DNA of 42,992 bases from a virus, in IMG/VR virus record IMGVR_UViG_3300022665_000250, positions 1-42,992 of that record, one strand, 5' to 3'. Below are positions 27,486 to 35,437 of this stretch, in pieces (position 1 is the first letter of the stretch; the number at the start of each line of letters is the position of its first letter). The notes below the pieces were generated by a model. It saw only the letters and a program-made list of their open reading frames with translations, was not told where the DNA came from and did no database searches. The translations under genes and the position numbers were made by a program.

Positions 27486-27622
27486 TTGTCCCTCTCAATT
27501 AGTAGCTCAAAACAACGCTTCATCGCTCTGGTTCGATTGCTTGATTCGCCCAAGCAGAGCACCCCAGATTTATGTCGGTAGCTGGCGCAATAAATCCCGT
27601 CTGATTTTTTCGTGATTTTCAT
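27470..27622 (-). CDS. 50-aa hypothetical protein
   Basis: ATGA overlap with the upstream gene stop and a 16-nt overlap with the ERF start. It fills an otherwise empty 133-bp gap. Translation was checked codon by codon. Confidence 0.4.
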   Translation of the reverse strand: MKITKKSDGIYCASYRHKSGVLCLGESSNRTRAMKRCFELLIERDKWASK

Positions 27623-28017
27623 GATTTTTGCCTTTGTAGATTTATTGCGGTATTTAAGCCGTTGGACAAAGAAAACAGTTGCAAATCAGGTGCTTTATAG
27701 TTTGAGTTTAAATTTTCAAATATCCAGATTGACCCAGCCGGTGAATTTTTTGAATAAATTTTATGGTCTAAAAAATAAATATCGCCTTCAAGTACATCAA
27801 AGACAATCCCATCCATCGTCCACGCATCCATCAATATAGCAACAATAGACTCAGGCTCATGGACGTACAGATTTTTCAAAAATCTCAATAAAGCGGTTGC
27901 TTCTTCGCGCCTGGCAGCCGCTTCATGTTCTGCAGCGTCTTCCTCGAGTTTTTCTGCGCGCTCGCGATCATCTTGATGATCGTCTGAAAGTTGTAGTTCG
28001 TATGTCGCCTCGCTCAT
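27619..28017 (-). CDS. hypothetical protein with acidic N-terminus
   Basis: 132-aa co-oriented ORF. Confidence 0.5.
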   Translation of the reverse strand: MSEATYELQLSDDHQDDRERAEKLEEDAAEHEAAARREEATALLRFLKNLYVHEPESIVAILMDAWTMDGIVFDVLEGDIYFLDHKIYSKNSPAGSIWIFENLNSNYKAPDLQLFSLSNGLNTAINLQRQKS

Positions 28018-28035: not shown

Positions 28036-28290
28036 TTAGCCGTCGCCGGAGCCGTCGCCGTAGCCGGAGCCGTAGCCGGAGCCGTCGCCGTAGCCGGAGC
28101 CGTCGCCGTAGCCGGAGCCGTAGCCGTCGCCGTAGCCGTCGCCGTCGCCGGAGCCGTAGCCGGAGCCGTCGCCGTAGCCGGAGCCGTAGCCGTCGCCGTA
28201 GCCGTCGCCGTAGCCGGAGCCGTAGCCGTAGCCGTAGCCGTCGCCGTTATGCAGGCTCACATCAAAAGCGCATAAACTAATTGACTTCAT
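28036..28290 (-). CDS. dipeptide-repeat protein: 15-aa head + G(XG)34, X = Asp(11)/Tyr(14)/Ser(9)
   Basis: The ATG has GGGAG 9 nt upstream and overlaps the end of the upstream gene by 14 nt. It is co-oriented with the operon. Gly is always GGC and X is always GAC/TAC/TCC. Confidence 0.55.
   Translation of the reverse strand: MKSISLCAFDVSLHNGDGYGYGYGSGYGDGYGDGYGSGYGDGSGYGSGDGDGYGDGYGSGYGDGSGYGDGSGYGSGYGDGSGDG
28039..28245. repeat. 34.5 tandem hexamers GCCGNN (NN = TC/GA/TA) on the plus strand
   Basis: Read directly from the sequence. All six frames lack stops, so the ORF track reports ORFs in several frames. Confidence 0.95.
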
Positions 28291-28657
28291 GTATCGGCGC
28301 TCCCTGAATCGATAATCTCGCCATTTCTGTTATGCTTAAAATCTCGCAAGATTCAGGCAATACTACCGTCTGAACCGACGCGGGAATCTTTGATTTATCA
28401 TGCACAATGCCATTTTCAGCGACACCAGATAGGCTATGAGAGTTATTTGCACATTTCCAATAGTAGAGCCTCCGCGAATTAGTTAATACTACCTCGCGCC
28501 CCTCGTAGCTCTTCAGATATCCGGCATGAACACCAGCATCACGACATCGAACAATGACGTATTCTCCGATCATCTCTTTTTCTTTCGGCTGCGGCTGTTC
28601 GGATTTTTCGTCGTCTATAAGCATCATTATTAACCTTTCTAACAATTCTGTTTTCAT
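28277..28657 (-). CDS. conserved phage protein of unknown function (SRRLYYW...LSGVAENG type), first gene of the early-left operon
   Basis: 126 aa. The motif order VIVRCRDAGVHAGYL...EVVLTNSRRLYYW...SLSGVAENG recalls a widespread phage DUF. Confidence 0.6.
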   Translation of the reverse strand: MKTELLERLIMMLIDDEKSEQPQPKEKEMIGEYVIVRCRDAGVHAGYLKSYEGREVVLTNSRRLYYWKCANNSHSLSGVAENGIVHDKSKIPASVQTVVLPESCEILSITEMARLSIQGAPIHEVN

Positions 28658-28684
28658 TTTTGCGATCCCAGTTGATTACTCGAT

Positions 28685-28712
28685 TTGTGGATATACATTA
28701 GCATCGTAAAAT
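28685..28712 (+). promoter_or_regulatory. candidate rightward early promoter
   Basis: TTGTGG, 16-nt spacer, TAAAAT, about 80 nt upstream of the Cro-like gene. Confidence 0.4.
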
Positions 28713-28723
28713 CAACAATGCAA
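28695..28723 (-). promoter_or_regulatory. candidate leftward early promoter
   Basis: On the minus strand: TTGCAT, 17-nt spacer, TAATGT. It is interdigitated with the rightward promoter. Confidence 0.4.
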
Positions 28724-28739
28724 TACCATATGTTGCATT
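28717..28739. promoter_or_regulatory. operator-like inverted repeat AATGCAA-N9-TTGCATT
   Basis: Perfect 7-bp arms. It covers the leftward -35 and the rightward transcription start region. Confidence 0.4.
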
Positions 28740-28794
28740 TATTTTAAAAGTCTGTAAGATTAAATCATCAGTAAAATCACGGAAATACTTACAT

Positions 28795-28998
28795 ATGCGC
28801 ATGACATTGAAAAATTACCTGGATATGGATGGCGTTACTATTAACGCAACGGCACAAACAATGGGGACTACTCGCGAATCTATACGGCGATGGCGTGACA
28901 ATAAAAACCTAGATGTGCTTGTCGTGTTCGATCCTGCCACGGACAAAATATCTCATATTGAGTTAAACCAAACTAAAATCATCAAGGCGAAATCATGA
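28795..28998 (+). CDS. small HTH DNA-binding protein (Cro-like)
   Basis: 67 aa and the first gene of the rightward operon. Contains INATAQTMGTTRESIRRW, a helix-turn-helix-like segment. Confidence 0.55.
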   Translation: MRMTLKNYLDMDGVTINATAQTMGTTRESIRRWRDNKNLDVLVVFDPATDKISHIELNQTKIIKAKS

Positions 28999-29408
28999 CT
29001 AGAAAAGTGCTGTGGAGAGGGCAAACGGATTACGATGACGCGGATGACGACGACTGGGTATACGGGTCGCTAGTAGAGTATTACGGCGATTATAGTATTC
29101 GACAACCCAAATATAATTATGACATCGCTGTTAAATCATCGACCATCGGGCAATTAACTGGCGAGAAAGACGGCGGAGGCAATAGTATTTTTGAGAACGA
29201 TGTTCTGTGCCTTGAGGAGGATTTCAAGCCTCTCTATACAGTCGTGTGGCGCAGGGCAAAAGGGGCGTGGATGGTGATCAATAAAAAAGCAGGAGGGCGG
29301 CCATTCTACCTATGCGATTTCCTGCGTATCAATTCCAGTGCCGTCAATATCGTTGGCAACACCAGCGAGCCAAAATATATTGATTTAATATCAGAGGATG
29401 AGAAATGA
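28995..29408 (+). CDS. YopX-like protein
   Basis: Contains IGQLTGEKDGGGNSIFENDV and a C-terminal IVGNTSEP, following the YopX pattern. This is the second copy in the genome. Confidence 0.6.
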   Translation: MTRKVLWRGQTDYDDADDDDWVYGSLVEYYGDYSIRQPKYNYDIAVKSSTIGQLTGEKDGGGNSIFENDVLCLEEDFKPLYTVVWRRAKGAWMVINKKAGGRPFYLCDFLRINSSAVNIVGNTSEPKYIDLISEDEK

Positions 29409-29590
29409 AAATAGAAATTAACGAAAGGGTGTTGGCCGCGCACAAGAAATACATGGAGGCAAGGAATGAGTATGCGGATTCCATAGGTCTTGAGAATATG
29501 GATAGAGCTTTCAAGATTTACTCTGAAGCCTCGCGTAATTTTGCCATGACCATCGCTCCTTTCGTTGAAGAATCCAACGAGGCAGTATGA
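29405..29590 (+). CDS. hypothetical protein
   Basis: 61-aa ORF with ATGA overlap. Confidence 0.45.
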   Translation: MKIEINERVLAAHKKYMEARNEYADSIGLENMDRAFKIYSEASRNFAMTIAPFVEESNEAV

Positions 29591-29670
29591 ATATGGGGGG
29601 TATCTACGATTAAGTGGATAAATCTCTTAAAATAATTGCCATTAACAACTGATATCAAACAAGGATTGTT

Positions 29671-29847
29671 ATGAAACTTATCGTCAATAAAAAAGAAATT
29701 GAAATTATAGTAGCGCGGCATCTATCCAAGACATACGGGGACACGATGATTTTTATTCATACCAAATTTGATGAGGCCGGGGAGAATATTGTGGTTGATT
29801 TGAGCGACGTATCGATTGCTGACGAGATAATTACCCGGAGGGATTAG
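29671..29847 (+). CDS. 58-aa hypothetical protein
   Basis: ATG with AAGGA 5 nt upstream. Below the ORF-track cutoff. The antisense ORF 29518..29721 was judged spurious. Confidence 0.4.
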   Translation: MKLIVNKKEIEIIVARHLSKTYGDTMIFIHTKFDEAGENIVVDLSDVSIADEIITRRD

Positions 29848-29851
29848 GCGC

Positions 29852-29895
29852 ATTACCAATAAATTACCAGTAAATTACCAGTAAATTAAGGGTGA
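29852..29895 (+). repeat. array A: 11-bp phased tandem repeats ATTACCA(A/G)TAA x3 plus a degenerate unit ATTAAGGGTGA containing the SD
   Basis: Read directly; units start at 29852, 29863, 29874 and 29885. A related copy, ATAATTACCCGG, is at 29827. Confidence 0.9.
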
Positions 29896-29900
29896 GAAAT

Positions 29901-30308
29901 ATGAAGGAATCAGAATTAGAGATACTTGAAAAGTTTGTTAAAGAGGAACGAGAACGAATAACGATTGAAGAAAAAGAAGCCTATGAAGCTGGGCCTCATA
30001 AATCTTTTTCGCTGGGGGATTGGGTCACAGACGGAGAAATCATAGGAACTGTGCACTATTGCGAAGAAGTTGGCTATCTCCATATTAACATCAAGAATAA
30101 AAATGGCGGGCTACTCGGCCAGACTCGGTCCGATAAATACGTTCTTGTTGATGATGAAGTGAGAGATTATTACACGCAAGAACACGAACTGGTTGTTTTT
30201 CTCACCGGAGAGGATATCGAAGCTATACTCAGGAAGCTAGGGCCGAGGAATTATAATCCAAGTAAATCAAAAGATAAATTATTGGATGCTCTAGAAAAAC
30301 TACGTTAA
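29901..30308 (+). CDS. hypothetical protein
   Basis: The ORF track starts at GTG 29892. I prefer ATG 29901, which has AAGGGTGA 5 nt upstream. Confidence 0.55.
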   Translation: MKESELEILEKFVKEERERITIEEKEAYEAGPHKSFSLGDWVTDGEIIGTVHYCEEVGYLHINIKNKNGGLLGQTRSDKYVLVDDEVRDYYTQEHELVVFLTGEDIEAILRKLGPRNYNPSKSKDKLLDALEKLR

Positions 30309-30319
30309 GAGGAAACGAG

Positions 30320-30384
30320 ATAATTACCGGATAATTACCGGATAATTACCGGATAATTACCGATAAATCACTGATAAATTAAGG
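30320..30384 (+). repeat. array B: 11-bp phased tandem repeats ATAATTACCGG x3 plus three degenerate units ending ATAAATTAAGG (SD)
   Basis: Read directly; units start at 30320, 30331, 30342, 30353, 30363 and 30374. Confidence 0.9.
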
Positions 30385-30391
30385 ATGTAAT

Positions 30392-30619
30392 ATGAAAACA
30401 TTTGAAATGAACCAAACACAAATGGACGCGCTAATGGCTGCATGTAAGCCTGTGGCGATGATTGCATTGCAATGCCGTACGCCATCGTCTCCCCAGGAAA
30501 ACGCTAATAATGCATGGGAGAAATTAGGCCAGGAGATGGGATTTGACCACATGACGGTGCGGCCAATTTCAGGGAAATCACAGCTTTTCTTTACTGCTGA
30601 GTGTAAGAGTACACCATAG
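30392..30619 (+). CDS. hypothetical protein
   Basis: 75-aa ORF with AAGGA 6 nt upstream. Confidence 0.55.
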   Translation: MKTFEMNQTQMDALMAACKPVAMIALQCRTPSSPQENANNAWEKLGQEMGFDHMTVRPISGKSQLFFTAECKSTP

Positions 30620-30740
30620 ATGGTATGATCAACTTCGCGGCGCCCGGTTTCAGCCTGATCCCTGTTTCTGGTCCTCATTCCTAAACCCTCGGGGTGTCGC
30701 GTTTATTTTTAAATTAGGGGTATAAATTAGGAAAATTTTA

Positions 30741-31355
30741 ATGAGTTTTGAAGCGGCCGCTTGGGCCATAAAACAAAAAACAAACAGGCCTATTGAAAAA
30801 TTAATTCTTATCGCTTTATGCGACTGCTATAACAAAAACAATTCAAGATGTGACCCGTCAATAATTTATCTCTCGGAAGTGGCGATATGTTCCGAGCGAC
30901 AGGCGACTAGATCTATCAACCAATTAGTTATCCAGGGATTTATATCTGCCTGTAGAAAAACAGGCAGGAGAACCAATTACAATATCAACTTAACCCCTGA
31001 CTCACAGTCACCCCACCCCCGACTCACAGTCACCCCCACCCCTGACTCACAGTCCAAAACCCCTGACTCACAGTCACCCGAACCAGTAAGAACCATTAAT
31101 TTAACCAGTAAGATACCGATACCAGATTTTATTGATAAAAAAATGTGGTCTGATTTTTTGGAGATGCGGGGAAAGAAAAAGAACTCGGATGTTTCTTTGA
31201 AGCGGATCATCAACGAACTAACGAAATTTGAAGCTAAAGGGATGGATGTGAACCAGGTGCTCAATAACTCAATCATGAGCTCATGGATCGGTGTCTTCCC
31301 AATAAAAGAATTCAAATTAGACAATCAACCACCTGCGAGGATTGTAGGCCGATGA
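30741..31355 (+). CDS. replication initiator (lambda O-like, N-terminal winged-HTH) containing the origin iterons
   Basis: The N-terminus (AAAWAIKQKTNRPIEKLILIALCDCYN...IYLSEVAICSERQATRSINQL) looks like HTH_36-type replication proteins. It lies upstream of DnaB with an ATGA overlap and has an internal 4x repeat. Confidence 0.6.
   Translation: MSFEAAAWAIKQKTNRPIEKLILIALCDCYNKNNSRCDPSIIYLSEVAICSERQATRSINQLVIQGFISACRKTGRRTNYNINLTPDSQSPHPRLTVTPTPDSQSKTPDSQSPEPVRTINLTSKIPIPDFIDKKMWSDFLEMRGKKKNSDVSLKRIINELTKFEAKGMDVNQVLNNSIMSSWIGVFPIKEFKLDNQPPARIVGR
30994..31113. repeat. putative origin: four ~20-bp iterons CCCCTGACTCACAGTCACC(C) at ~22-bp spacing, then AT-rich DNA with 2x AACCAGTAAGA
   Basis: GACTCACAGTC cores at 30999, 31021, 31044 and 31065, each with GACT/AGTC dyad symmetry. 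AACCAGTAAGA occurs at 31081 and 31103. The architecture resembles ori-lambda inside gene O. Confidence 0.55.
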
Positions 31356-32572
31356 TTCTAAACATTGAAAAACAAGTCTTGTCGACGGTCATGTGCGAAT
31401 TCAATCCGATCCCGCTCGATCTCAACCCTAATCACTTTTCGACATCTGAGGGCCAGAAAATATACAGGGCCGCGCTCGATGTCGCTCACGATGGACTGAT
31501 CACCAATGTTTTTTCTGTCGCTGAGAAATTGTTCGATGCAGACAAACAAACCGATTGGCAACCGATCATTGCTTCAATCGTTTTGGAAAACCCTGCTAGC
31601 AATGTCAACATCGAGTCCTATGTCAACATCGTAAAAAACGAATATTACCAGCGCAAATCCGAACGTGCCGCTAAAATCTATCTGAACAAAGTTGTCGACA
31701 GGGACGCTAGCGCGTTATCTGGATTGCTGGGATCGATGGGTGCGGATGTCAACTACCACGCAAATCAAAAAGAATCACTGAAATCTGTATTTGATCGACT
31801 AGACGAGATTTCCAACGGCGGGCTGCCTGCAGTGAGCACGGGGCTGAGAAAATTGGATGATTTGCTGGGTGGCTGGCAGGATTCACATTTGATTGTTTTG
31901 GCCGCTAGGACGGGCGTGGGCAAAACCGCTGCGATGTGTAATTTTGCGCTCAGTGCTGATTGCTCAGTTGGGATTATTTCTGCTGAGCAGAGCCATCGGG
32001 AATTGATGCAACGGATGCTCGCTATTCACAGCGGCGTGTTCGGGTCAAAATTCAGAACCGGCGCTATGAGTGTAATGGATTTTAATCTGCTATCAAAAAG
32101 CACCGAATATATATCTGAGCGGAAAATCAGGTTTTATGACAAAGGGATGCCGAATATCGACGCGGTTGTGAACGCTGCGATACAAATGAAGCATCAAGAT
32201 GACATCAAGATTCTGTTCGTAGATTACATTCAATTCATAAAGTCTGACGTTGGATTTTCCAGGCACGAAAATATTGGAGATATTACCGGGACTCTCAAGT
32301 CGCTAGCAAAGCAATTGAAAATACCTGTTGTGGCCTTGGCTCAAGTTGGTCGACAAGCTGAGGGGCGAATGCCGATGCTTTCGGATTTGCGCGAATCGGG
32401 ATCAATTGAGCAGGATGCTGATGTTGTTATTTTTTTACATCGAGAGGCGATGACTAATCAGACATCAAATCCAAATCACATGGACGTCAACGTGGCAAAG
32501 AACCGGCACGGCCCAACGGAAATCATTGCTGTGCAGTGGATCAAGGATTTAATGAGGATAGCAGACCTATGA
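31352..32572 (+). CDS. dnaB: replicative DNA helicase DnaB family
   Basis: Walker A (ARTGVGKT), LFVDYIQ Walker B region, SDLRESGSIEQDADVV motif. I prefer ATG 31352 (ATGA overlap) over track start 31283. Confidence 0.85.
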   Translation: MILNIEKQVLSTVMCEFNPIPLDLNPNHFSTSEGQKIYRAALDVAHDGLITNVFSVAEKLFDADKQTDWQPIIASIVLENPASNVNIESYVNIVKNEYYQRKSERAAKIYLNKVVDRDASALSGLLGSMGADVNYHANQKESLKSVFDRLDEISNGGLPAVSTGLRKLDDLLGGWQDSHLIVLAARTGVGKTAAMCNFALSADCSVGIISAEQSHRELMQRMLAIHSGVFGSKFRTGAMSVMDFNLLSKSTEYISERKIRFYDKGMPNIDAVVNAAIQMKHQDDIKILFVDYIQFIKSDVGFSRHENIGDITGTLKSLAKQLKIPVVALAQVGRQAEGRMPMLSDLRESGSIEQDADVVIFLHREAMTNQTSNPNHMDVNVAKNRHGPTEIIAVQWIKDLMRIADL

Positions 32573-33039
32573 TCACCTCAAAACCTACGCGCTACAACGG
32601 GATTGTTTATCGATCCAGGCTTGAGGCTAAATGGGCGGCAATGTTTGATCTTTTAGATATAAAATTTGAATATGAGCCAGCCCATTACATGACATCGATC
32701 GGTGGATATTTGCCCGATTTTCTTCTTGACGGGAAATTGATTGTTGAGATTAAGCCGATTATCCCGACAAGTGATGAGTTTACAAAGCTTTGTGATGTTG
32801 GTAATCAGACCGATAAGACCTGTATTTTTCTTTGTGGTTTTCCCTTGTCTGCAGATGCAGAATGCGTGTATCTACTCAACAGACAGACGACAAGTTTTTT
32901 GGGTATTTTTGGCGTTAGTGTAATCCAAGAGCATAGGATTAATTATTTCCTTTCTGCTGTGAGAAACAAATTTAAGACCAGAAGGGTCATGGATATTTTA
33001 AAAGAAATCACCGCGAAGTTCAGGAACAGCTATGGATAA
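32569..33039 (+). CDS. PD-(D/E)XK nuclease-like protein
   Basis: YRSRLEAKWAAMFDLL...FEYEP...YLPDFLL...IVEIKP gives a D..E.K motif. The start was chosen at the ATGA overlap with dnaB. Confidence 0.55.
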   Translation: MITSKPTRYNGIVYRSRLEAKWAAMFDLLDIKFEYEPAHYMTSIGGYLPDFLLDGKLIVEIKPIIPTSDEFTKLCDVGNQTDKTCIFLCGFPLSADAECVYLLNRQTTSFLGIFGVSVIQEHRINYFLSAVRNKFKTRRVMDILKEITAKFRNSYG

Positions 33040-33178
33040 ATTATCACGCCCCTGGGATTGTATTTATTCGCCGTTTGAGCTGGAGATAGCGCGCAGATGC
33101 CGGAAGACTTTGCCGGATGAGGATTATGCTGTTAAAGCTCTTGATATTGAAATGACACAGATTAAAGTTGAGGAATGA
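33032..33178 (+). CDS. 48-aa hypothetical protein
   Basis: Overlaps both neighbours (an 8-nt overlap upstream and an ATGA overlap downstream). Below the track cutoff. Confidence 0.35.
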   Translation: MDKLSRPWDCIYSPFELEIARRCRKTLPDEDYAVKALDIEMTQIKVEE

Positions 33179-33429
33179 GTATGGAAATTGTAATTGGCAT
33201 TGGGGCATTTTGGATCTTATGCGGGGTTTTAGATTACGGAATTATGCTGGCTTATTTTCAACGAGAATTCCCAGTTATTGCCGAGTTCATGTTTGAGGAA
33301 GATAGAAGAGATTCGATTTCATTTTTTGCTTTAGGCCCAATATCACTCGCCGACGATCTACTATCTGGCTATGGAAAGCACGGCCTGATGTTCAGAAATC
33401 CACACAAAAGGAATGAAAATGAGACATAA
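33175..33429 (+). CDS. small membrane protein
   Basis: 84 aa with an N-terminal hydrophobic segment. Confidence 0.45.
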   Translation: MSMEIVIGIGAFWILCGVLDYGIMLAYFQREFPVIAEFMFEEDRRDSISFFALGPISLADDLLSGYGKHGLMFRNPHKRNENET

Positions 33430-33607
33430 ACTGGAAAAAGGCACTGCAACGGTGATTCTGGAAATTGCCCTTTCGTTGACGTTAAAAGACAAGATCCGGC
33501 TTGAGTCGAAAAAATACGGTATGAACATGAGCGAATACGTTAGGGAGACCGTGTTGCACAGGATTGATGTGGATAATTTTACGGATAGTGAAGAATCTTT
33601 GAAGTAG
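33413..33607 (+). CDS. ribbon-helix-helix (CopG/Arc-like) protein
   Basis: Contains LTLKDKIRLESKKYGMNMSEYVRETVLHRI, an RHH pattern. Confidence 0.5.
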   Translation: MKMRHKLEKGTATVILEIALSLTLKDKIRLESKKYGMNMSEYVRETVLHRIDVDNFTDSEESLK

Positions 33608-33672
33608 GGCTTGAATCATCCGGGTGATTGGACTATAGTGGGGCATATCAACGCAAAACAGGGATCAAGAAA

Positions 33673-34032
33673 ATGGAAGTATCACTAACAAAAGAGCAAG
33701 CGATCGAGATTGCAACTAACGCAATCAATGCTTCGGCCCCGATGGGTATGGGTCGTATTCACTTCGAAGATAAGAACTACACACAAGACGAAGTAGCAAA
33801 ATCATTCGGAAATGATGACCAAGCATCATTCGATTACTACCACGGAAGAATGGTAAAACTTCATTTCTTCAAATCTCCCAATGGAGATTACATATTCCCC
33901 TCTCTTGTCGACGTTGAATACCAATCCTGGGCTGGAAAGTACCCGACCTATGAGGATTTAATTTTGTCGGTTGTGCCTGATGCCACTTTTGAGGAGATAG
34001 CATCAACAACCGAGACCGCCAGGAGAGACTGA
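33673..34032 (+). CDS. hypothetical protein
   Basis: I prefer the ATG at 33673 over the TTG track start at 33628. Confidence 0.5.
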   Translation: MEVSLTKEQAIEIATNAINASAPMGMGRIHFEDKNYTQDEVAKSFGNDDQASFDYYHGRMVKLHFFKSPNGDYIFPSLVDVEYQSWAGKYPTYEDLILSVVPDATFEEIASTTETARRD

Positions 34033-34181
34033 CACTGAATTTACGAGCAGCGGCTAAACGTCATAGGGCCAGCATGAGGTTCCGACTCTGACCGGTTGAA
34101 AAGGGGAAGGGCCAAGCAATAGTGCATACTCGGGGGCGTGACTTGTAGGAGAGACTACTACCAATTTAGAGAGAGGACGAA

Positions 34182-34397
34182 ATGTTTAGCACCAGTCAAA
34201 AGCAGAAAATTTCACAGAATATTCAAGACATTCTGAGAGAGACAAATCATCCTGAACTGCCAAATAGCGAGATTAAATTCACTATTCGAATCGAAGGTGC
34301 TGAATCATGGTCATGGGCCGAAATACAAAACAACGGTGCTTATGATGGAAAGCCTGGAAATCCTTTCAATGAATTGTATAAATCTACAAGGAGATGA
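34182..34397 (+). CDS. hypothetical protein
   Basis: 71-aa ORF with GAGAGGA upstream. Confidence 0.5.
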   Translation: MFSTSQKQKISQNIQDILRETNHPELPNSEIKFTIRIEGAESWSWAEIQNNGAYDGKPGNPFNELYKSTRR

Positions 34398-34574
34398 TTT
34401 CAAGTGGCGGCGGCGTGGTAATGGATCGTACATGCCGTAGAGTCAGCACAACAGTCGGCTCTCCGTTAAATACCAAGCAGGGAAACGGCCTGCTCAATGG
34501 ACGCATTAAGCCCAGTGGGAGACAAAACGTTAAAGCCAGAGTAGCGCCTGGCCCGCCACTTAAAATGATTTCAA
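34394..34574 (+). ncRNA. 171-bp insertion-like element / candidate structured RNA
   Basis: The 10-bp direct repeat ATGATTTCAA occurs at 34394 and 34565. A terminal inverted repeat AAGTGGCGG(c)GGCG (34402-15) pairs with CGCC(tggc)CCGCCACTT (34545-61). There are internal helices, including AGCAGG-N7-CCTGCT. The overlapping 68-aa ORF looks non-protein-like. Confidence 0.35.
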
Positions 34575-34599
34575 AAATGAGAAACGAAGGGATAAAATA

Positions 34600-34944
34600 A
34601 TGAAACCAGAAACAATGATGATTGATGATGTGAAATACGTGCGCGAAGACTCAATAAAAGTATTCGCGCTGCCTGATGGAGATTTTTCTCCTTGGGAAAC
34701 AGGCGAGGAATATCACATCGAAACAGCAACTAAGTATTATCTCGGAAGATTGATACTGGTCACAGACAAGGAATTAGTTGTTGACGGTGCTTCATGGGTG
34801 GCCGATACAGGTAGATTTAACGAGTACCTGAGCGGAAGCAACCCAAGCGAGAATGAACCCTACCAAAAAGGATCGGCGCTGATAATTAGTAGAGGCGCAT
34901 TGGTCTCGGCAGTTAAACGCGAAATCATAATTGAGGTTATCTGA
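34600..34944 (+). CDS. conserved phage protein of unknown function (ASWVADTGRF type)
   Basis: 114 aa. YYLGRLILVTDKELVVDGASWVADTGRFNEYLSG...EPY recalls a widespread phage DUF. Confidence 0.6.
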   Translation: MKPETMMIDDVKYVREDSIKVFALPDGDFSPWETGEEYHIETATKYYLGRLILVTDKELVVDGASWVADTGRFNEYLSGSNPSENEPYQKGSALIISRGALVSAVKREIIIEVI

Positions 34945-35180
34945 TGAACGCCGTGATGCTGCGAGAAGGTTATTTAGGGTCTGGGTCTAGGTCTTGGTCT
35001 TGGTCTGGGTCTAGGTCTGGGTCTAGGTCTGGGTCTAGGTCTGGGTCTAGGTCTTGGTCTGGGTCTGGGTCTGGGTCTGGGTCTAGGTCTGGGTCTAGGT
35101 CTGGGTCTAGGTCTTGGTCTGGGTCTAGGTCTGGGTCTAGGTCTTGGTCTTGGTCTGGGTCTGGGTCTAGGTCTGGGTAA
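34944..35180 (+). CDS. dipeptide-repeat protein: 11-aa head + (XS)33-G, X = Gly(17)/Arg(11)/Trp(6)
   Basis: The ATG overlaps the upstream stop (TGATG), with GAGG 7 nt upstream. It is co-oriented with the operon and followed by a terminator. The frame choice remains uncertain because other frames are also open. Confidence 0.5.
   Translation: MNAVMLREGYLGSGSRSWSWSGSRSGSRSGSRSGSRSWSGSGSGSGSRSGSRSGSRSWSGSRSGSRSWSWSGSGSRSG
34977..35177. repeat. 33.5 tandem hexamers NGGTCT (N = G 17, A 11, T 6, C 0)
   Basis: Read directly from the sequence. Four consecutive GGGTCT units at 35061-35084 form a G3N3 quadruplex motif on the plus strand. Confidence 0.95.
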
Positions 35181-35183
35181 ACG

Positions 35184-35210
35184 AAAAAGCCCCAAATTAA
35201 TGGGGCCTTT
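35184..35210 (+). terminator. rho-independent terminator
   Basis: AAAAA-GCCCCA-aattaa-TGGGGC-CTTTAA, starting 4 nt after the stop of the repeat ORF. Confidence 0.55.
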
Positions 35211-35362: not shown

Positions 35363-35437
35363 AAAGGAGAGTGCACAACGGTGGTAGTGCAGCGGGGCGC
35401 ACCCGTACTGGAGGTTCGAATCCTCCCTCTTTTTCCA
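35363..35437 (+). tRNA. tRNA-like gene with canonical acceptor, D and T arms and encoded CCA, but a truncated anticodon arm (possible pseudogene or decoy)
   Basis: Acceptor AAAGGAG/CTCTTTT (one G.T pair). D arm TGCAC-N10(GG)-GTGCA. T arm GGAGG-TTCGAAT-CCTCC. Discriminator T followed by CCA. The anticodon region CGGGG-CGCA-CCCG is about 4 nt too short for a 5-bp stem plus 7-nt loop. Confidence 0.45.

Follow-up and report, generated by a model that had tools for sequence, protein, structure and literature searches.

In this study, we analysed IMG/VR virus record IMGVR_UViG_3300022665_000250 (42,992 nt; referred to here as the window), the complete genome, about 43 kb long, of a tailed phage known from metagenomic data. 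We report that it contains two cassettes, each made up of the gene of a small protein and, overlapping its end, a gene for a strict dipeptide repeat, which is acidic and of the Gly-X kind in one cassette and basic and of the Ser-X kind in the other. Comparison with relatives indicates that both repeat open reading frames (ORFs) are genuine coding genes, which are kept by selection on amino-acid composition. The two upstream proteins, partner 1 and partner 2, are both predicted to be Sm-like barrels, and each Sm-like family is paired with one repeat chemistry only, while the two cassettes are autonomous modules that mostly occur independently of each other. With the Sm assignment taken as a prediction from structural models, the architecture of the module appears to be undescribed: no paper, Pfam description or PHROG annotation of it was found, and literature searches on DUF6948 (the family of partner 1), the peptide strings, phage tandem or dipeptide repeats and phage Sm-like proteins yielded nothing on the module, the nearest find being a paper on LSm-like proteins of phage T4 that is discussed below. 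In deposited genomes its genes are called hypothetical or 'fibroin heavy chain-like', or are not called at all. The cassettes of the window consist of the following genes.

28277..28657, minus strand: partner 1, 126 amino acids, DUF6948 (Pfam PF22253)

28036..28290, minus strand: Gly-type repeat gene, 84 amino acids (ORF translation and Tandem Repeats Finder), with the leader MKSISLCAFDVSLHN at 28246-28290, (Gly-X)34-Gly at 28039-28245 and the stop codon TAA at 28036-28038

34600..34944, plus strand: partner 2, 114 amino acids, unnamed family, with the hairpin motif MKPETMMIDDVKYVRED followed by a predicted Sm-like barrel

34944..35180, plus strand: Ser-type repeat gene, 78 amino acids (ORF translation and Tandem Repeats Finder), with the leader MNAVMLREGYL at 34944-34976, the repeat at 34977-35177 and the stop codon TAA at 35178-35180

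Array 1 (28037-28247; period 6/12/30 and a score of about 285 in Tandem Repeats Finder) reads on the minus strand as GGC plus GAC, TAC or TCC and encodes, after a leader of 15 amino acids, 34 variable positions alternating with Gly, of which 14 are Tyr, 11 Asp and 9 Ser; the repeat contains no Lys or Arg and has a charge of -11. Array 2 (34977-35178; period 6, 33.7 copies, score 285) reads as NGG plus TCT and encodes, after a leader of 11 amino acids, 34 positions alternating with Ser, filled by Gly (17), Arg (11) and Trp (6), with no Asp or Glu and a repeat charge of +11. Our recount therefore agrees with a preliminary description of this DNA, in which both arrays had been credited with 34 variable positions, one with 11 Asp, 14 Tyr and no basic residue, the other with 11 Arg, 6 Trp and no acidic residue, and charges of -11 and +11. 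It had also been stated there that both repeat ORFs overlap a small upstream gene, and this is the case: the start of the Gly-type gene overlaps the end of the gene for partner 1 by 14 nt, and the ATG of the Ser-type gene overlaps the TGA of partner 2 by 1 nt (TGATG). On inspection, both starts have a Shine–Dalgarno-like GGAG or GAGG 9-11 nt upstream. Inside array 2, a canonical G-quadruplex motif is present on the coding strand at 35061-35081, where GGG-TCT occurs four times.

To place these genes among their relatives, about 290 loci were surveyed (numbered here with the prefix L). Viral contigs were scanned with the DNA patterns (TCNNGG)x6 and (GGN-KMY)x8, each of which gave at least 120 loci, and the pairing of repeats with upstream genes was taken from hidden Markov model (HMM) surveys. 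A Gly-type array follows 60 of the 63 DUF6948 genes surveyed. Ser-type arrays follow 36 of 43 genes of the partner-2 family and 27 of 29 genes for A3, an upstream protein of 85-90 amino acids (88 amino acids) found at Ser-type loci that do not have a member of the partner-2 family. According to hhalign, A3 and the partner-2 family are homologous (98.6%, E 1e-15). No cross pairing of Sm-like family and repeat type was seen in the HMM surveys. The repeat ORFs after A3 have basic leaders such as MIRGKKQK, and leader classes track the partner family. The variable position is Arg (0.34), Gly (0.32) or Trp (0.28) in Ser-type arrays and Ser (0.39), Tyr (0.32) or Asp (0.24) in Gly-type arrays, figures into which the choice of DNA patterns for finding the loci brings some bias. 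A net positive charge is present in 78 of 79 arrays of the Ser type, and a net negative one in 62 of 66 of the Gly type, with the same bias. Opposite charge, which the preliminary description had noted for the window, is thus a property of both families. Another 32 loci from genome collections, found by protein motif alone and coming from metagenome-assembled genomes of many phyla, have a Ser/Trp/Arg/Gly-rich ORF downstream in about 25-28 cases. Most Ser-type loci consist of leader plus Ser-[R/G/W] ORFs, often in tandem, with 13 such ORFs in L017, 7-8 in L078 and 4 each in L032, L045 and L067. At L078 (604-3875), the Sm-like gene and eight tandem Ser-type ORFs are inserted between QueD and QueE of 7-deazaguanine synthesis. 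Among cultured phages, a Gly-[Y/S/D] ORF follows the DUF6948 gene in PhiPLPE, Ymer and NK-7; in Iodobacter phage PhiPLPE (NC_011142; L131, 1164-1409) the Gly-[Y/D/S] ORF lies directly after gp84 (DUF6948) and is unannotated in RefSeq, and in Ralstonia phage NK-7 the homologue is labelled 'fibroin heavy chain-like protein'. Many metagenomic contigs start or end inside arrays (L024, L027, L058, L065, L137, L143, L146, L154 and L010/L030), which indicates that the repeats break assemblies and that the modules are therefore under-counted.

Several observations argue that the repeat ORFs are genes. Relatives that were found via the partner proteins have the same kind of ORF downstream. On the Ser-type side, L001, L008, L009 and L010, whose partner proteins (L001, L008 and L009/L010) are 47-50% identical to partner 2, have an ATGA or TGATG overlap, a conserved leader of the form MN-x-x-h-L-R-x-G-[FYL]-[DG] and Ser-[G/R/W/E/L] repeats; on the Gly-type side, L006, L002, L004, L131-L133 and L045 share the overlap and the type of array with the window, in synonymous codons. 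Across the survey, the start of the repeat ORF overlaps the end of the partner gene in 28 of 36 cases for the partner-2 family, 57 of 60 for DUF6948 and 13 of 27 for A3. Lineages differ in their codons, and it is only in the predicted frame that these changes are synonymous: for Ser of the Ser-type array, the window uses TCT, L001 and L009 use TCA and L008 uses TCG, and in the Gly-type array Gly, Tyr and Ser are GGC, TAC and TCC in the window versus GGA, TAT and TCT in L006. The position of the stop codon also singles out one frame: the predicted frame has its stop at most 3 codons from the end of the array in 77% of the Ser-type arrays and 48% of the Gly-type ones, compared with 15-26% for the other frames. 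Of all frames, the predicted one alone is open throughout every array as well as constant in its chemistry, and the open stretch upstream of the array has a median of 23 codons in this frame versus 5-8 in the other frames. Finally, degenerate relatives without DNA periodicity, namely three Gly/Asp/Tyr/Ser-rich ORFs in L007 and Ser/Trp/Arg/Gly-rich ORFs in L268 and L265, have retained the amino-acid composition. The two-gene arrangement put forward in the preliminary description is upheld in that the repeat ORFs are conserved genes, each coupled to a small upstream partner.

Other ways of reading the arrays were considered and set aside. Read in frame +1, array 2 gives a perfect (Gly-Leu)34, but this frame is closed by a TAG immediately ahead of the array and lacks any start codon in the window, and in other lineages it turns into Gly-Arg or Gly-Gln/His, so that its chemistry is not constant. 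The reverse strand of array 2 is a perfect (Pro-Arg)34, in which stop codons are present in the lineages that use TCA. A fusion of partner 2 to the repeat through a -1 frameshift is permitted by the relation of the frames, but the conserved ATG and leader favour independent initiation. The small residue of the repeat is encoded by one codon in most arrays (median codon entropy 0), the dominant Ser codon across the survey being TCG in 34 arrays, TCT in 30 and TCA in 14 and the dominant Gly codon GGC in 54, GGT in 7, GGG in 4 and GGA in 1; some arrays mix synonymous codons, AGT included. L009 and L010 encode an identical partner protein (P0019) next to arrays of unequal length. Because most arrays use a single codon and the arrays of these two loci differ in length, we infer that arrays turn over fast by slippage or unequal recombination.

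Partner 1 matched the Pfam model of DUF6948 with E 1.2e-27 (96.3 bits at a cut-off of 27; model positions 2-84 of 85), and homologues of this family form at least 677 clusters at 90% identity. For partner 2 there was no match to a Pfam or PHROG family, the DUF6948 model included; its family comprises 47 close homologues and 1,920 clusters at 50% identity (E ≤ 1e-3), and is marked by a conserved W-[VI]-A-D-T-G-R-F insertion and by I-x-R-G in the beta4-beta5 loop, a stretch that resembles the 'RG' of the Sm2 motif. AlphaFold2 models, built on family alignments, were confident, with a predicted local distance difference test (pLDDT) score of 94.3 for partner 1 and 83.3 for partner 2. The model of partner 1 has a helix at 3-17, five strands, a helix at 76-82 between strands 3 and 4, and a C-terminal helix at 111-118. 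In that of partner 2 an N-terminal hairpin replaces the helix, strands run at 37-42, 46-54, 58-69, 93-97 and 101-106, and the beta3-beta4 insertion contains a helix (73-77) and a short extra strand (84-87). The order of three long strands, a short helix and two strands is common to both models. In Foldseek searches of the PDB, the best matches of partner 1 were Lsm2-8 and the archaeal Sm protein 1i8f (E 1e-3, target-normalised template modelling (TM) score 0.6-0.7), and those of partner 2 were Sm/LSm chains, 1i8f too (E 1e-2, target-normalised TM score 0.7-0.8); matches of the two models include Lsm1-7/2-8 and spliceosomal Sm proteins. When the model of partner 2 was compared with viral models (BFVD), DUF6948 proteins appeared at ranks 2, 8, 21 and 44. 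Both partners are therefore predicted to adopt an Sm-like barrel.

It had been proposed in the preliminary description that the two partners are related, with a shared motif order of G-x-L ... E-[LV]-V-[LV] ... W. In terms of fold this suggestion fared well, since the same fold is predicted for both and Sm/LSm chains are the best matches of both; in terms of sequence, homology was not significant. The hhalign comparison of the partner-2 family with DUF6948 gave a probability of 2.6% and E 0.018, with a weak match over the beta1-beta3 core that does cover the proposed motif order; A3 versus DUF6948 gave E 0.08, again over the beta1-beta3 stretch, and BLASTP of partner 1 against partner 2 found nothing. 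An N-terminal motif, MKPETMMID[DE]VKY[VI]R[AE]D (MKPETMMIDDVKYVRED in partner 2), heads the partner-2 family, some DUF6948 proteins and one unrelated coiled-coil ORF (window, 34600-34650; L002, 3998-4050; L004, 135-190; L005, 3995-4045; the unrelated ORF in L003, 976-1032). The DUF6948 proteins that have it (L002, L004 and L005) themselves precede Gly-X genes. Such a motif may represent a docking hairpin that is portable between proteins, or else a joint left by recombination. Three homologues of partner 2 (P0179, P0190 and P0307) contain two tandem Sm-like domains in one polypeptide, which is compatible with, and no proof of, proteins that build rings.

Taken together, we tentatively propose a model in which the leader docks a disordered repeat on an Sm-like ring that acts early in infection, and we give this model as a whole slightly less than an even chance of being correct. 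The Sm-like protein, whose fold is predicted, would assemble into a ring, and the conserved leader of about 10-15 amino acids would dock the repeat peptide on it, so that several disordered tails would project from one particle and make it multivalent. Such a particle would correspond to the Sm/LSm rings of eukaryotes with their RG/RGG tails, or to Hfq and its acidic tail, except that ring protein and tail would come from two genes. The Arg/Trp-rich version may bind single-stranded nucleic acid, and the Asp/Tyr-rich version may serve as a polyanionic aromatic mimic of nucleic acid or bind basic nucleic-acid-binding proteins; both versions would act early in infection, beside replication and recombination genes. 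Where both are present, mutual binding is conceivable, though not as the general mode of action. A broader form of this proposal, which we consider doubtful at present, is that these cassettes make up a widespread, hitherto undescribed class of phage early modules in which an Sm-like ring, decorated through the leader with many low-complexity tails, becomes either a polycationic Arg/Trp binder or a polyanionic Tyr/Asp mimic of nucleic acid and organizes or sequesters RNA, single-stranded DNA or host nucleic-acid-binding proteins, possibly as a condensate; the fast-evolving array length would then tune valency, and in phages with both types, such as this one, the two oppositely charged brushes would form a complex coacervate.

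A number of points weigh against the docking model. The Sm assignment comes from predicted structures with modest Foldseek E-values (1e-2 to 1e-3); Pfam LSM and Hfq models gave no match at E ≤ 1 in partner 1, 44 members of the partner-2 family and 8 A3 proteins, and a profile search of the partner families against PDB sequences gave nothing significant. Oligomerization of the Sm-like proteins, leader binding and nucleic-acid binding are all steps that we infer, and translation of the repeat ORFs is deduced from sequence. Up to 13 repeat ORFs per Sm-like gene (L017, L078) poorly suit a simple 1:1 complex. No protein in which an Sm-like domain is fused to a repeat was present among the longer homologues inspected, which gave only tandem Sm-like domains and unrelated extensions. 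In addition, partner 1 is itself mildly acidic (about -3 by hand count), so that electrostatics alone leaves its binding of an acidic peptide unexplained.

The preliminary description had favoured a different explanation, namely that the two repeat products are a matched pair of opposite charge which bind each other through electrostatic and cation-pi contacts (Arg/Trp with Tyr/Asp) and form a complex, coacervate or fibre; taken strictly, the phage would need both. The two arrays of the window indeed have equal unit numbers (34/34) and equal, opposite charges (-11/+11), for which survey distributions give, post hoc, P = 0.03 for equal unit number and P = 0.07 for equal absolute charge, and the opposite charge together with the contrast of Tyr versus Trp and Arg holds family-wide. 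The two cassettes, which are 6.3 kb apart in the window, adjoin on one strand in L045, where 4 Ser-type and 2 Gly-type ORFs are found, and lie within 8 kb of each other in L258. However, the window, L045 and L258 are the only ones among about 100 Ser-type loci in which both types were seen together, that is, DUF6948 is present in 3 of about 100 (about 3%) within the readable flanks of 5-8 kb, a span beyond which more distant cassettes would be missed. No partner-2 or A3 gene occurs among the 120 Gly-type pattern matches listed, the two pattern scans have no contig in common among the matches listed, and of the 13 records of DUF6948-bearing phages (12 cultured), none matched partner 2 or A3. 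Since the neighbourhood is shared in only about 3% of loci and cultured phages have the acidic type alone, the cassettes are best described as autonomous modules. The array lengths in L045 are not matched, and a letter-for-letter correspondence of the window arrays (D/Y/S with G/R/W, forward or reversed) is excluded by the residue counts of 11/14/9 versus 17/11/6. An obligate matched pair, against which the preliminary description had itself named independent occurrence of the cassettes as one refuting observation, is thus not borne out, and as a general explanation pairing seems rather unlikely to us. The frequency of about 3% nevertheless exceeds the chance expectation for such rare families, so that an occasional functional link between the two cassettes is possible.

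The preliminary description also mentioned a toxin/neutralizer-like pair. Applied to a single cassette, this would mean that a repeat peptide, especially the Arg/Trp-rich one, is active on membranes or nucleic acids during host takeover and is kept in check or delivered by the Sm-like protein. Small overlapping genes, translationally coupled and located in early operons, would fit this arrangement, as would the acidic nature of partner 2 (about -8 by hand count) next to a peptide of +11; peptides rich in Arg and Trp are typically membrane-active. However, one partner gene can precede 4 to 13 repeat ORFs, the partner of the acidic Gly-type peptide is acidic too, no toxin or antitoxin family in Pfam or PHROGs matched the partners or the repeat ORFs, and the strict repeat architecture is unlike that of known small toxins. 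With 1 to 13 repeat genes per partner, a toxin/neutralizer-like pair is a poor fit, and we regard it as distinctly unlikely. Leader plus core is equally the layout of ribosomally synthesized and post-translationally modified peptide (RiPP) precursors, whose repetitive core would here be modified or processed with the Sm-like protein as the subunit that recognizes the leader. The correlation of leader classes with partner family agrees with this idea, and so do the tandem paralogues of L017, L078, L032, L045 and L067, which keep the leader while the core varies. Yet no YcaO, LanM or precursor-linked radical SAM protein was seen beside the cassettes of the window, L001, L006-L009, L045, Ymer, NK-7 and PhiPLPE, in an inspection of neighbourhoods that was not an exhaustive profile scan, and the QueD and QueE genes flanking the L078 cassette belong to 7-deazaguanine synthesis. 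As strict dipeptide cores of 30-130 residues are also unlike known RiPP cores, this explanation appears very unlikely.

A last alternative is that the hexamer arrays function as nucleic acid, as a G-quadruplex, R-loop, long GU-rich hairpin or an array on the mRNA to which the Sm-like protein binds, and that the peptide is incidental. Sm-like proteins bind single-stranded RNA, and the RNA of array 2 is predicted to fold into a long GU-rich hairpin (z = -9.05) besides containing the G-quadruplex motif mentioned above; moreover, residues are mostly encoded by one codon, and changes at the variable base leave the peptide of frame +1 and that of the reverse strand unaltered. The RNA of array 1, however, is less structured than its shuffles (z = +6.42), and arrays from other lineages gave z-scores of -2.74, -1.15 and -2.91 (Ser-type) and -0.95 (Gly-type). 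With z-scores ranging from -9 to +6 across relatives and no Rfam match, we rejected a conserved RNA structure or G-quadruplex element. No DNA motif is common to both array types, and the evidence for the coding frame set out above also counts against this alternative: overlap, leader and stop position single out one frame, in which alone lineage differences are synonymous, degenerate relatives keep the composition without the DNA repeat, frame +1 lacks a start codon in the window, and in lineages with TCA the reverse frame is interrupted by stops. We therefore consider a primary role as nucleic acid highly improbable, and a secondary RNA role, such as autoregulation by the Sm-like protein, may exist beside that of the peptide.

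The docking model has parallels in better-known systems. The eukaryotic proteins SmD1, SmD3 and SmB have RG-repeat tails and LSm4 has an RGG tail, so that a ring of subunits displays several of them. The phage module resembles these proteins in combining a small, predicted Sm barrel with a basic dipeptide repeat for which no fold is predicted, and the partner models match their chains best. It differs from them in that window-type repeats are encoded by a separate, coupled gene in up to 13 copies within a phage early operon, in that the chemistry is Ser-[Arg/Gly/Trp] or Gly-[Tyr/Asp/Ser] and not Arg-Gly, and in that there is no Pfam LSM match. The disordered C-terminal domain of Hfq has an acidic tip in E. 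coli and long Gly-rich repeats in Acinetobacter and Moraxella, and this extension is thought to mimic nucleic acid and to regulate RNA binding. Common to Hfq and the module would thus be an Sm-like core that is combined with a low-complexity stretch of acidic or Gly-rich type, whereas in the phages the repeat is a separate ORF with a strict period of 2, no sequence similarity to Hfq was detected, and the partners have family-specific insertions (W-[VI]-A-D-T-G-R-F in partner 2 and W-Y-W-K...L-S-G-V-A in DUF6948). Silk fibroin contains (Gly-X)n, and FUS-like low-complexity domains contain [G/S]Y[G/S] and RGG/SR; Tyr-rich acidic and Arg-rich basic low-complexity sequences are classic stickers of phase-separating proteins. 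Like fibroin, the Gly-type repeat strictly alternates Gly with X, which can be Ser or Tyr. Unlike fibroin and FUS-like sequences, the phage peptides are 40-140 amino acids long, begin with an N-terminal leader, are tied to an Sm-like gene and contain 24% Asp in the Gly type and 28% Trp in the Ser type, and the data do not imply fibres or condensates. Arrays of RiPP precursors have in common with the module a conserved leader, a variable core and tandem paralogues; their difference from it lies in the long perfect dipeptide repeats of the phage cores and in the lack of modifying enzymes among the genes seen nearby. LSm-like phage early proteins have been described before: T4 GoF, MotB.1 and Frd.2, for which a role in RNA stability has been proposed (PMC12152347), are likewise early, have no assigned function and were recognized as LSm-like by structure prediction alone (PMC12152347). 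Judged by their description they belong to different families, and the abstract and outline mention no repeat gene (PMC12152347).

In the window, both cassettes are located in operons with genes for early functions, which are arranged as follows.

Leftward operon, in order: DUF6948 gene (partner 1), Gly-X gene, gene for an acidic 132-amino-acid protein, 50-amino-acid ORF, Erf-like annealing protein, RecE-like exonuclease

28658..28794: divergent intergenic region of 137 bp between partner 1 (leftward) and the helix–turn–helix (HTH) gene 28795-28998 (rightward), from the ORF layout

Rightward operon, first part: HTH protein, YopX, O-like initiator with iterons, DnaB, endonuclease

Rightward operon, second part: partner 2, Ser-X gene, terminator-like hairpin, NinB and lastly terminase

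35189..35206, plus strand: GC-rich hairpin (GCCCCAaattaaTGGGGC) followed by a T-rich tail, 9 nt past the Ser-type stop, from a pattern scan only

The first cassette thus opens the early operon that runs leftward from the divergent region 28658-28794, which is presumed to be a candidate early promoter region, and the second ends a block of the rightward operon directly before the hairpin 35189-35206, which together with its T-rich tail looks like a terminator. This bears out the placement of the cassettes in two divergent operons that had been given in the preliminary description. Cassettes elsewhere also sit in early replication/recombination modules in the neighbourhoods inspected. The product of gene 28795-28998 (67 amino acids) has weak HTH matches in Pfam. 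The host of the window phage is probably a gammaproteobacterium; its terminase shares 58-60% identity with terminases from phages of Vibrio, Pseudomonas and Klebsiella, and megablast searches of 50,697 phage records with the cassette region and the structural half as queries found no close relative. Between the Gly-type gene, which it directly follows, and the Erf/RecE recombination genes, 27619-28017 on the minus strand encodes the very acidic protein of 132 amino acids, for which no family match was found; in other phages the same slot is occupied by anti-RecBCD or DNA-mimic proteins.

Some further features of the window were recorded. Within the O-like initiator gene (30741-31355), which adjoins DnaB, four 23-bp direct repeats (ACCCCTGACTCACAGTCACCCC) at 30993-31079 are probably origin iterons, and with these inside the O-like gene a replication origin within the repeat arrays was rejected. 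Two sets of 11-bp tandem repeats, ATTACCAGTAA in 3.4 copies (29852-29888) and GATAATTACCG in 4.5 copies (30319-30377), have ATTACC in common and flank the ORF 29892-30308; they could be protein-binding arrays. ARAGORN and Rfam detected no tRNA or Rfam family in the window, and no integrase was recognized in it. A tRNA-like 3' fragment at 35385-35437 contains a perfect T-arm (GGAGGTTCGAATCCTCC, 35410-35426) followed by CTCTTTTTCCA, and could be a decayed tRNA or an attP core that matches the 3' end of a host tRNA.

The module can be studied by genetics in cultured carriers, which are Pectobacterium phage Ymer and its relatives, Ralstonia phage NK-7, Iodobacter phage PhiPLPE and Vibrio phage IKEMa6-1. 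Repeat ORFs of this kind are missed or mislabelled in deposited genomes, and their arrays break metagenome assemblies. The module is small, simple in design and easy to synthesize, and its array varies naturally in length, so that it could serve to study how the valency and charge of a repeat govern nucleic-acid binding or condensation in bacteria. It is present in phage lineages that number in the thousands (for the partner-2 family 1,920 clusters at 50% identity, and for DUF6948 at least 677 clusters at 90%). If our proposal is correct, the module would represent a new candidate class of host-takeover or anti-defence functions and a bacterial-virus counterpart of the eukaryotic Sm ring with its low-complexity tail.

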